Shown here: positions 36,889 through 37,952 of the stretch, piece after piece
How the letters are laid out: each line of letters opens with the position of its first letter
How positions within the stretch are numbered: position 1 is the first letter of the stretch
DNA from: a virus
Lineage: Duplodnaviria > Heunggongvirae > Uroviricota > Caudoviricetes
IMG/VR virus record: IMGVR_UViG_2703718850_000006
Location: 1 to 44,611 of that record
Strand: one strand, 5' to 3'
Length of the DNA stretch: 44,611 nt
Translations under genes and position numbers: made by a program
Notes under the pieces: model-generated
Seen by the model: the letters and a program-made list of their open reading frames with translations, nothing else
The model's database searches: none
Told to the model about the DNA's origin: nothing

Positions 36889-37098
36889 TCAATCCGCGTT
36901 TTCGCGCTGATTCCAGTCATGAACAGCACGTTCTTTCGAATCAGGGATCTGGTTTGCGTTACAGCAAGTACATGCGACGTAATAACCATCATCGCCATCC
37001 AGAAAATATTTCACCTCAATGAGTTGTACTTCCGGATTTCCGCAGAACGGGCAAGGTTTCAGATCGACATCACCAGTTACACACGTCTTGGTTTGCAT
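36889..37098 (-). CDS. Lar-family restriction alleviation-like protein (zinc ribbon)
   Basis: 69-aa ORF with KPCPFCG...C.CC motif as I recall it in Rac Lar/RalR. Confidence 0.65.
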   Translation of the reverse strand: MQTKTCVTGDVDLKPCPFCGNPEVQLIEVKYFLDGDDGYYVACTCCNANQIPDSKERAVHDWNQRENAD

Positions 37099-37952
37099 TA
37101 TTTGTTCTCCTGTAAAAGATTCGCGAGCTCAGTGTTATGGGTAAACAGCCCATCCCATGTTTTCTTCATCGGTAGTTCACCGTTCAGATAATGGCGATAT
37201 AACCAGGCGGCACCTTTTTTCTTCAGGAGTGGTTTGAAAATCTCGCGCATTTCCCCGTTTTCCTGCTCAACCTGCCCAGAACGCTCAGTCAGGTATTGGT
37301 CACGTGCATACGCTTTTACACGCCAGCGCGGATACATAGCCTCCGGACGGTCGTCATACAGCCAGTTACGCTCTTCAAGGAACGCATTAATCTGACGAGT
37401 GTTTACACCGTTGAGTTGTTTGCAGAACTGCACAGGAGTGATGCCATCGGCGAGATGGCTTTCGAGTTTGCTGATGTAGCGAGCCTGACGCTCTGCATAC
37501 CCGAGAGCAAGGCGTTCGGATTTTTTGGCTTCAATCCACGCTTCAGCAGCAGCGATCGGATCGTCAAAGTCTGGAATAGTGTTTGAAGAAGGCGTTGCTT
37601 TACGAAAATACGCCTGCTCCATTTTTTCGAAGAACGACCAGGCCTCGTCTGTATCGACGATTTTTGACATGCGGGCAGCGCCGCGTTCTGTCCAGAGGAC
37701 AAGTGATGTTGTATGTTTATTAACCGACTCGCTAAAAGATAGTCGGAAAGATTTCAGCTCATCACCGCTGATTTTGAAAAAGTGTTTACCCTCAACGAAA
37801 CGATCTTCGTTTCGAATGTAGTTCTGTTGTATACGGATTGGCGTTGTTCCATATCCCGCCGCCAACGTTTCGGTGGTAACTACACGTACTCCCTGCCACT
37901 CAATAACTGGCAAGTTTTCAGGGTTGACTAATTTTTGTTTATTGATCATCAT
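37098..37952 (-). CDS. ORF6N-domain protein (antirepressor-like)
   Basis: 284-aa ORF; N-terminal ...GVRVVTTETLAAGYGTTPIRIQQNYIRNEDRFVEGKHFF... fits the ORF6N pattern as I recall it. Confidence 0.6.
   Translation of the reverse strand: MMINKQKLVNPENLPVIEWQGVRVVTTETLAAGYGTTPIRIQQNYIRNEDRFVEGKHFFKISGDELKSFRLSFSESVNKHTTSLVLWTERGAARMSKIVDTDEAWSFFEKMEQAYFRKATPSSNTIPDFDDPIAAAEAWIEAKKSERLALGYAERQARYISKLESHLADGITPVQFCKQLNGVNTRQINAFLEERNWLYDDRPEAMYPRWRVKAYARDQYLTERSGQVEQENGEMREIFKPLLKKKGAAWLYRHYLNGELPMKKTWDGLFTHNTELANLLQENK

Follow-up and report, generated by a model that had tools for sequence, protein, structure and literature searches.

A phiP27-like lambdoid prophage carrying ORF6N-KilAC and Lar-family zinc-ribbon genes in the interval from cro to the replication genes

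We find that the window (the whole 44,611-nucleotide stretch of viral DNA analyzed here) very probably represents a phiP27-like lambdoid E. coli prophage whose early-right operon holds, in a mosaic slot, a two-gene accessory cassette encoding an ORF6N-KilAC protein and a Lar-family protein, a grading that covers identity, layout and slot jointly. The functions proposed for the two genes are together more tentative, at somewhat below even odds, and for the overall explanation taken as one statement (identity, layout, mosaic slot and inferred functions) we estimate a probability of about 0.55. The gene order is a divergent cI/cro region, cro, the ORF6N-KilAC gene, the Lar-family gene, two isrK/C4/Rha modules, two small ORFs and the replication genes (Table 1). 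A sequence-only reading of this DNA had located an ORF6N-domain gene directly after cro, followed by a zinc-ribbon gene, in the place that lambda gives to cII; the coordinates of both genes prove exact, and both genes indeed fall in the interval from cro to the replication genes. The pair is ordinary and already annotated, since RefSeq entries for E. coli prophages give the same names to near-identical copies: there, 'ORF6N domain-containing protein' is the name of a protein 100% identical to this one (388 contigs), and the DNA of the Lar gene is 99.9% identical to copies bearing the same name.

Table 1. Features of the region from the CI-like gene to the replication genes, in window coordinates.
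Feature	Position	Strand	Evidence or remark
Terminator-like hairpin	39131-39149		after CI-like gene
CI-like repressor, HTH_3 + Peptidase_S24	38417..39109	+	Pfam Peptidase_S24 1e-17, HTH_3 2.3e-5; phrog_4 5e-54; divergent from operon
cI/cro divergent control region, presumed pRM/pR and operators	38329..38416	.	88-bp gap between divergent genes
Cro-like HTH protein, YdaS family	38029..38328	-	first gene of operon (early-right); Pfam YdaS_toxin 2e-13; phrog_35 'transcriptional repressor' 1e-21
Hairpin + T-tract between cro and ORF6N gene	37976..38015	+	points against operon; 11-bp stem, 7 GC pairs, then TTCTTTTTTC
ORF6N + KilAC(ANT) 'antirepressor-like' protein, 284 aa	37098..37952	-	Pfam, PHROGs
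Lar-family zinc-ribbon protein, 69 aa	36889..37098	-	PF14354, TIGR03655; coupled to ORF6N gene
isrK-type sRNA, copy 1	36741..36817	-	Rfam RF01394 63.6 bits, gathering score 50; within annotated 'ash family' ORF
C4-type antisense RNA, copy 1	36629..36716	-	Rfam RF01695 83.0 bits, gathering score 45
Rha-domain ORF, copy 1, 120 aa from MATVPTS	36212..36574	-	Pfam Phage_pRha 29.9 bits = cut-off 29.9; GGAGG-N8-ATG
isrK-type sRNA, copy 2	36085..36161	-	Rfam RF01394 58.8 bits
C4-type antisense RNA, copy 2	35973..36060	-	Rfam RF01695 83.3 bits; different recognition sequence CUGCGA pairing with UCGCAG
Rha-domain ORF, copy 2	35550..35918	-	Pfam Phage_pRha (full ORF); ATG at 35918
Small ORFs, two	35327-35560, 35106-35330	-	phrog_5146, phrog_1153 (unknown function)
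Replication-initiation ORFs	34810-35109, 33821-34813	-	phrog_4617, phrog_270

The gap between the divergent cI and cro genes contains promoter-like sites on the minus strand (38372-38345 and 38352-38324), and by analogy with the lambdoid layout this region would supply pRM, pR and the operators. From cro to the ORF6N gene there are 76 bp, and the later gene junctions overlap by 1 or 4 bases. The hairpin between cro and the ORF6N gene folds at -21.3 kcal/mol as plus-strand RNA (z -2.5) versus -13.5 kcal/mol as minus-strand RNA (z 0); on the operon strand it is weak and has no U-tract. Because this hairpin is nearly identical in 11 homologous loci, with a single stem-loop position varying, its covariation is uninformative. 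In a lysogen, the ORF6N-Lar pair would be silent, being transcribed with cro from a CI-repressed promoter, and it would be expressed right after infection or RecA-triggered CI cleavage; induction is probably RecA-dependent, as in lambda, because the CI here has an S24 autocleavage domain. As expression of the ORF6N-KilAC protein would need prior loss of CI, the protein could not itself trigger induction. It may strengthen the lytic programme or commit the phage to it, or its targets may be the repressors of co-resident prophages, reached in trans. Antirepressors are able to act in trans on other prophages (PMC3121763), and in the Stx phage Phi24B an ant knock-out left superinfection unaffected, its authors reporting evidence for a likely role of the gene in relieving CI repression during induction (PMC3064807).

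Both domains of the ORF6N-KilAC protein score above the Pfam cut-offs, ORF6N clearly (residues 16-98; 73.6 bits against 27.8, E 1.6e-20) and ANT/KilAC marginally (residues 171-255; 27.8 bits against 25.3, E 3.3e-6), and the PHROGs family phrog_63, 'anti-repressor Ant', matches residues 2-278 (4e-46). The AF2 model shows two domains linked via a long helix (132-166). A PDB sequence search with the protein found no solved homologue, and Foldseek searches with the AF2 models of the ORF6N-KilAC and Lar proteins gave no match at E <= 0.001. The architecture is that of the domain-shuffled antirepressor/KilA proteins, in which ORF6N, KilA-N, BRO-N or Rha N-domains are combined with KilAC/ANT C-domains, here ORF6N with KilAC; the N-domain is exchangeable, as a KilA-N variant of the protein carries an identical C-half. 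The ORF6N N-domain shares 43-50% identity with Ant proteins from Stx phages, of which VT2-Sakai ant and Phi24B ant are examples. The likeness of Phi24B Ant to P22 Ant lies mainly in the C-terminal domain (PMC3064807), whereas the C-half here is of the KilAC type and the part that the protein has in common with Stx-phage Ant is the N-terminal ORF6N; the gene here is the first after cro, presumably under CI control. 'Antirepressor' is here a domain-level label, and the protein may be a regulator of the Ant kind, with a repressor or DNA as its binding partner. Vibrio phage ICP1 is a lytic phage. Over its C-terminal half, the protein shares 46% identity with ICP1 'putative DNA-binding proteins', and since a lytic phage would have no repressor to antagonize, this likeness counts against an antirepressor function.

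The ICP1 annotations bear on a different reading, which we consider unlikely, namely that the ORF6N-KilAC protein regulates transcription by binding specific DNA sequences, serves in a CII-like or decision role and does not bind a repressor. In favor of it, the gene occupies the cII position, and no CII was found. The ORFs from cro to the replication genes, with the downstream boundary of the interval set by the block of small and replication ORFs (33821..35560), yielded no CII-type profile match (Phage_CII, Phage_CP76 or YdaT) in scans with Pfam, PHROGs and NCBIfam, as the sequence-only reading had anticipated when it saw no lambda CII-like protein there. A further Pfam scan of the small ORFs and the replication ORFs, relaxed to E <= 5, still gave no CII-type match, within the sensitivity that HMMER speed filters allow for very weak matches. 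The idea of a hidden CII was set aside on the outcome of these scans. Lambda cII and the CII analogue YdaT of Rac hold the same map position, between cro and the replication genes, without sequence relationship to the genes found here. The other occupants of the slot, Rha and BRO-N 'regulators', would also suit a DNA-binding regulator, as would the ORF6N part of the AF2 model, which weakly resembles the winged-helix SKI/Dachshund DNA-binding domain (DHD; Foldseek probability up to 0.92, TM ~0.5). However, these structural matches are not significant (E ~0.3), the homologue annotations are themselves putative and no target sites were identified; moreover, sister prophages can do without a given content of the slot, which would not be expected of an essential decision regulator.

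The second gene of the cassette encodes a protein that reads ...DLKPCPFCGNPEV...ACTCCNANQ...HDWNQR, with cysteines at 6, 16, 19, 43, 45 and 46. Its earlier recognition as a zinc-ribbon protein of the Lar family, from the KPCPFCG motif, is substantiated by profiles from three collections: Lar_restr_allev in Pfam (PF14354; 43.1 bits, cut-off 28.6, E 5e-11), anti_R_Lar in NCBIfam (TIGR03655; 49.6 bits, cut-off 39.6) and 'Lar-like restriction alleviation protein' in PHROGs (phrog_599; 5e-14). With profile matches for both the Lar and the ORF6N proteins, the lack of such matches, which the earlier reading had named as grounds for refutation, did not arise. The protein has the CxxC ... CxxC arrangement of a zinc ribbon together with a C-terminal W-N-x-R, and alignments that include RalR, phage homologues and 12 relatives from databases show no variation at C16, C19, C43, C46, W62, N63 and R65. 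In the AF2 model (pLDDT 82) the core is beta-rich and is followed by a single C-terminal helix; a PDB sequence search with the 69-aa protein returned nothing, and Foldseek on the model returned nothing usable.

Rac Lar of E. coli K-12 (= RalR, b1348) belongs to the same PF14354/TIGR03655 family, has the KPCPFCG...C..C...WNxR signature in common with the 69-aa protein and is likewise encoded in an early prophage operon by a gene that is small and non-essential. The two proteins are 33% identical over 60 residues, and the 69-aa protein is not a RalR orthologue, scoring 26.2 bits against a cut-off of 113 with the RalR equivalog model (NF007260). The settings also differ: Rac lar lies in the leftward recET operon beside the RalA sRNA, whereas the Lar gene here lies in a rightward operon, where it lacks a RalA-like partner and is coupled to an Ant-like gene. 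Restriction by EcoKI is relieved, and modification increased, by both Rac Lar and lambda Ral, through a mechanism that is still unexplained (PMC3177214; PMC12707154; King & Murray 1995, as cited there); lambda Ral is reported as a functional analogue of Lar only (PMC3177214). Within the Lar family, relief of restriction and enhanced modification by type IA systems (EcoKI) are known for Rac Lar alone (King & Murray 1995, as cited in PMC3177214 and PMC4041452). For the 69-aa protein, a distant relative of this sole tested member, restriction alleviation is suggested by the family name. If it acts in the way assumed for Rac Lar and lambda Ral, it would shift a resident type IA enzyme of the EcoKI family toward de novo methylation, through which unmodified phage DNA would survive. 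The recurrent Lar subclade that adjoins the replication genes of enterobacterial prophages offers a convenient second case beside Rac Lar.

Membership of the same Pfam/TIGRFAM family as RalR also admits another function. RalR of Rac has been reported to act as a non-specific DNase toxin, RalA being its sRNA antitoxin (PMC4041452), and the K-12 annotation reads 'endodeoxyribonuclease toxin RalR', so that the 69-aa protein could be a RalR-like type I toxin (a DNase) restrained by an antisense sRNA and not an anti-restriction factor. We regard this as very improbable. The equivalog score lies far below its cut-off, and the gene sits within a lytic operon, in translational coupling, and is not a stand-alone toxin-antitoxin locus. 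A RalR/RalA system would have an adjacent sRNA, oppositely oriented and able to pair over ~16 nt with the coding sequence of the toxin; a search for an sRNA of this kind found, within 36500-38100, no inverted repeat of at least 11 nt touching the Lar coding region (36889-37098), and no Rfam match on the opposite (plus) strand. A RalR-type toxin-antitoxin system was rejected as the main explanation on these three grounds: the equivalog failure, the lack of a RalA-like complementary partner and the lack of an Rfam match.

The stop codon of the ORF6N gene and the start codon of the Lar gene share one base (TAATG) in the junction CAGGAGAACAAATAATG, and a Shine-Dalgarno sequence, AGGAG, precedes the Lar ATG. 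The earlier reading took the two genes to look like an anti-restriction and anti-repression module; the relatives show that such a module is not obligate, although the position is typical for either gene. In prophages of Salmonella and other enterobacteria, Lar relatives at 60-68% identity lie between cro and the replication genes with no ORF6N/KilAC neighbor, and ORF6N-KilAC relatives at 54-60% identity lie directly after cro in Klebsiella and Pectobacterium prophages with no Lar gene; thus, the pairing is facultative, and an obligate Ant-Lar linkage is ruled out. Sister prophages carry, in the same slot, KilA-N-KilAC with Lar, or Rha, or Rha with BRO-N. The two genes may well function independently and have been joined through modular exchange. 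In phiP27-like prophages, the interval between cro and the replication genes is a slot in which antirepressor-like genes and a Lar-family gene are swapped, not a cII site.

The coupling itself has nevertheless been kept in places, which speaks for the ORF6N/KilA-N-KilAC protein and the Lar zinc ribbon forming one functional unit, for example with the zinc ribbon as a KilAC cofactor in a complex whose target would be a host defence or a repressor. The translationally coupled pair, with its one-base sharing of stop and start, recurs in the unrelated phages Fostie and SaltyDalty, and the shared base is found in 15 of 80 IMG/VR loci; a different phage backbone keeps the pair at merely 41% (Ant) and 38-44% (Lar) identity; the swap of the N-domain from ORF6N to KilA-N leaves the KilAC half and Lar nearly identical; and ORF6N/KilA-N proteins are the commonest class upstream of Lar relatives (9 of 50 dereplicated neighbors). 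Conservation of the one-base coupling in unrelated phages could mean that the Ant and Lar proteins act together. Set against this are the relatives just described, in which either gene occurs without the other, and the more distant Lar relatives that adjoin RecT, DNA methylases and other genes; Rac Lar, moreover, functions without such a partner according to literature cited in PMC3177214. We judge a single functional unit to be improbable. A stronger form, in which a conserved, coupled two-protein system moves as a unit between unrelated temperate phages, with the zinc ribbon and KilAC forming, for example, a joint anti-defence or repressor-neutralizing complex, seems to us slightly less probable again; if it were true, the 'Lar family' proteins of this subclade would not be simple Ral-like EcoKI modulators.

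Downstream of the Lar gene, the 'duplicated genes' of the sequence-only reading are two tandem homologous ORFs (36212-36892 and 35550-36215), but they are not plain protein genes, as Rfam places genes for isrK and a C4 antisense RNA in the 5' half of each. The tandem pair is two isrK plus C4 antisense-RNA modules of the P1 immI/Gifsy-1 isrK type, each predicted to control a Rha-like ORF. In copy 1, the single-stranded UUCCAA of C4 is complementary to UUGGAA, which occurs in the isrK loop (36792) and again at 36624, and the recognition sequences co-vary between the two module copies. Neither C4 target (TTGGAAC or TCGCAG) occurs near the start codons of the ORF6N or Lar genes, and the motifs lie inside the two downstream modules only; the ORF6N and Lar genes should therefore be outside C4 control and the Rha ORFs inside it. 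On these motif positions, the possibility that C4 antisense RNA controls the ORF6N and Lar genes was rejected.

Like the immI locus of P1/P7 (c4-icd-ant) and isrK-orf45-anrP of Gifsy-1, the modules here carry C4 and isrK RNAs above the gathering scores, and an orf45-like frame begins inside C4 and runs into an antirepressor-like (Rha) ORF (PMC4825925). Unlike those loci, the module here occurs as two tandem copies whose recognition sequences co-vary, and its orf45 frame forms one ORF with Rha; these RNAs would act on the downstream Rha ORFs and not on the ORF6N and Lar genes. Annotations as 'ash family protein' thus conceal isrK/C4 regulatory RNAs, which is relevant to the modelling of lysis and lysogeny in Stx-related prophages. 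Upstream of the first isrK, a TTGATT-N17-TACACT motif, picked out by eye, appears to end about 7 nt before 36817.

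Both genes directly 3' of cro belong to the families that the sequence-only reading had assigned to them, with its coordinates exact and the profile matches far beyond chance. The 284-aa protein matched the Pfam families ORF6N (residues 16-98, 73.6 bits, cut-off 27.8) and ANT/KilAC (residues 171-255, 27.8 bits, cut-off 25.3) as well as phrog_63, 'anti-repressor Ant' (4e-46). The 69-aa protein matched Lar_restr_allev in Pfam (43.1 bits, cut-off 28.6), TIGR03655, 'Lar family restriction alleviation protein', in NCBIfam (49.6 bits, cut-off 39.6) and phrog_599. Its KPCPFCG motif occupies residues 14-20, and C16, C19, C43, C46, W62, N63 and R65 were invariant across alignments that took in K-12 RalR, two phage homologues and twelve database relatives, as expected for a predicted four-cysteine zinc ribbon; these residues, together with the profile matches, confirm the gene pair. 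AlphaFold2 modelled the Lar-like protein as a beta-rich core with a C-terminal helix (mean pLDDT 82) and the ORF6N-KilAC protein (pLDDT 76) as two domains connected by a long helix, with a weak winged-helix SKI/Dachshund resemblance of the ORF6N domain that was not significant.

Features of the immunity region and of the early operon
Feature	Position	Strand	Basis or remark
CI-like repressor, HTH + Peptidase_S24	38417-39109	+	domain matches
Cro-like HTH protein, 99 aa	38029-38328	-	profile matches
ORF6N-KilAC ORF, 284 aa	37098-37952	-	Pfam, PHROGs
Lar-like ORF, 69 aa	36889-37098	-	Pfam, NCBIfam, PHROGs
Two tandem 'Ash + Rha' ORFs	between Lar-like gene and replication genes		interval ORF list
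Promoter-like motif, TTGATT-N17-TACACT	36824-36852, and equivalent site upstream of 36161	-	
isrK sRNA, copy 1	36741-36817	-	Rfam
C4 antisense RNA, copy 1	36629-36716	-	Rfam
Co-varying patches, copy 1	36782-36796 / 36648-36661 / 36614-36628	-	
Rha-domain ORF, copy 1, 120 aa	36212-36574	-	
isrK sRNA, copy 2	36085-36161	-	Rfam
C4 antisense RNA, copy 2	35973-36060	-	Rfam
Co-varying patches, copy 2	36130-36136 / 35996-36001 / 35961-35967	-	
Rha-domain ORF, copy 2, 120 aa	35550-35918	-	
Small ORFs, 77 aa and 74 aa	between Lar-like gene and replication genes		PHROGs of unknown function
Replication-initiation ORFs	34810-35109 and 33821-34813		end of searched interval

The window holds a lambdoid prophage with a phiP27-like backbone, akin to Stx-phage backbones; cI and cro diverge in the classical way in its immunity region. 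A tRNA-Gly(UCC) gene (27419-27491, -) lies within the prophage, and an Rfam IS009 RNA element (846-1044, -; 206.9 bits) lies near the left window end. Directly 3' of cI stands a gene for a second, DicA/XRE-like HTH protein (143 aa, 39248-39679, +; HTH_3 2.5e-11), with a terminator-like hairpin (39131-39149) between the two. On the other arm, 76 bp separate the cro stop codon from the ORF6N-KilAC start, and the Lar-like start codon opens on the last base of the ORF6N-KilAC stop codon (…CAGGAGAACAAATAATG…), an arrangement typical for translational coupling. Three features suggest that the pair would be transcribed together with cro from the CI-repressed promoter: the order of the genes, junctions that are short or overlap, and no convincing terminator on the operon strand. 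In that case the pair would be expressed early after infection or loss of CI. Between cro and the ORF6N gene lies a hairpin (37976-38015) that makes a good intrinsic terminator on the + strand only, pointing against the operon (11 bp, -21.3 kcal/mol, z -2.5, then TTCTTTTTTC); on the - strand it reaches only -13.5 kcal/mol (z about 0), with no U-tract. Immediately upstream of it (37924-37952) there is a weak promoter-like site on the + strand, and a cis-antisense transcript, about 50 nt long and covering the ORF6N start and ribosome-binding site, is conceivable. The hairpin region is nearly invariant in 11 homologous loci, which are too alike for covariation.

The proposal that the pair forms an anti-restriction and anti-repression module is, as a whole, partly supported, and the functions of both proteins are ones that we infer. 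The Lar-like protein would best be modelled on Rac Lar (RalR) and lambda Ral, which counteract restriction by EcoKI and, it is believed, boost de novo methylation; their mechanism is unknown (PMC3177214; PMC12707154). It is a distant member of the family (33% identity to RalR), and assignment to the RalR equivalog was rejected (26.2 bits, cut-off 113). RalR has been reported as a DNase toxin under control of the RalA sRNA (PMC4041452); a search of the Lar-like locus for a RalA-like complementary partner found none. The name 'antirepressor' for the ORF6N-KilAC protein is a label at the level of domains. Its N-domain is 43-50% identical to Stx-phage Ant proteins, and its C-half is 46% identical to 'putative DNA-binding proteins' of the lytic Vibrio phage ICP1. 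In Phi24B, whose Ant resembles P22 Ant mainly in the C-terminal domain, an ant knock-out left superinfection unaffected, and the authors present evidence that Ant is likely to help relieve CI repression upon induction (PMC3064807). Because the ORF6N-KilAC gene would be under CI control and CI carries an S24 autocleavage domain, the protein cannot initiate induction; by analogy, it would at most reinforce derepression or target the repressors of other prophages, on which trans-acting antirepressors act (PMC3121763).

The gene pair is ordinary, and public genomes already have it annotated. Of 5,426 complete E. coli genomes, 14 carry its 1064 bases (96-99.9% identity), with the annotations 'ORF6N domain-containing protein' for the first gene and 'Lar family restriction alleviation protein' for the second, and a database protein 100% identical to the ORF6N-KilAC protein (P0014) is found under the former name in 388 contigs. 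In sister prophages sharing the flanking genes, the slot from cro to the first 'ash' gene is mosaic: it holds ORF6N-KilAC + Lar in L001 and L002, KilA-N-KilAC + Lar in L006, where the N-terminal domain alone is swapped and the protein is essentially unchanged from about residue 125 on, a Rha-family regulator in L098, and Rha + BRO-N proteins in L099. In Salmonella and other enterobacterial prophages, Lar relatives (60-68% identity) occupy the interval from cro to the replication genes, unaccompanied by an ORF6N/KilAC gene. Relatives of ORF6N-KilAC (54-60% identity) occur without Lar: in Klebsiella and Pectobacterium prophages the gene comes straight after cro, in Rosenbergiella it is near Q, and in Hafnia it is part of an integrase-bearing island. 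As each gene is found without the other, both are common, separately mobile tenants of the region; the families and position proposed for the module were right, but the pairing is facultative, each gene recurring alone in related prophages.

The sole mildly unexpected result is that the coupled pair recurs. In phages Fostie (L004 3147-4261) and SaltyDalty (L005 3135-4252), whose backbone differs from that of the window prophage, the gene for a 284-288-aa ORF6N protein (41% identical along its whole length) precedes a Lar-like gene (product 38-44% identical) with an identical one-base overlap. A 281-288-aa ORF ends exactly on the Lar start in 15 of 80 IMG/VR loci with Lar relatives, and 50 dereplicated upstream neighbours of such relatives comprised eight ORF6N proteins and one KilA-N protein, the others including RecT (two), three DNA methyltransferases, DUF3310 and YopX. 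This recurrence lends support to the idea that the two proteins cooperate, to which we give a low probability. Together with L023, L024, L027, L028, L030, L031 and L047, Fostie and SaltyDalty make up a group of temperate phages, unrelated to the window prophage, that have the same pair and overlap; in this group the operon with the pair also holds excisionase and integrase genes. In the Rac prophage of K-12 (L003 6839-7230), kilR and the zinc-binding ydaE likewise overlap by one base where stop codon meets start codon; ydaE is outside the Lar family, with weak Pfam hits below cut-offs.

Pfam, PHROGs and NCBIfam scans of the ORFs from cro to the replication genes gave no CII-type family match, nor did a Pfam rescan at E <= 5 of the small ORFs, a Rha ORF and the replication ORFs. 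The earlier remark that no CII-like protein is recognisable before the replication genes thus holds within the reach of profile HMMs. Because both small ORFs fall in function-unknown PHROGs, a non-homologous CII analogue may be among them.

The 'duplicated genes' 3' of the Lar-like gene are more than simple protein genes, a point that the sequence-only reading missed. Each 'ash family' ORF contains an isrK and a C4 RNA in its 5' half, with 4 of 4 Rfam matches above gathering scores. Since the isrK/C4 region is exactly what Pfam Phage_ASH matches (residues 22-113 of the first 'ash' ORF), the 'Ash' half is probably RNA-coding and the regulated protein probably the Rha-domain ORF only, from MATVPTS. 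The two modules are nearly identical save three short co-varying patches, which in copy 1 read UUGGAA (isrK loop), UUCCAA (single-stranded part of C4) and UUGGAAC (just 3' of C4, preceding the GGAGG-N8-AUG of the Rha ORF), and in copy 2, at the same places, UCGCAG, CUGCGA and UCGCAG. The logic is that of P1/P7 immI and Gifsy-1 isrK-orf45-anrP (PMC4825925), except that here two modules of different specificity stand in tandem, resembling the difference between P1 and P7 immI. By this analogy, each module is predicted to control its own Rha-domain ORF. C4 control of the ORF6N and Lar genes was ruled out, as no C4 target motif is present near their start codons. The end of the promoter-like motif lies about 7 nt short of the point where Rfam starts each isrK copy, which suggests a putative promoter for each module, as in Gifsy-1, and transcription of the modules in the lysogen may not depend on pR.
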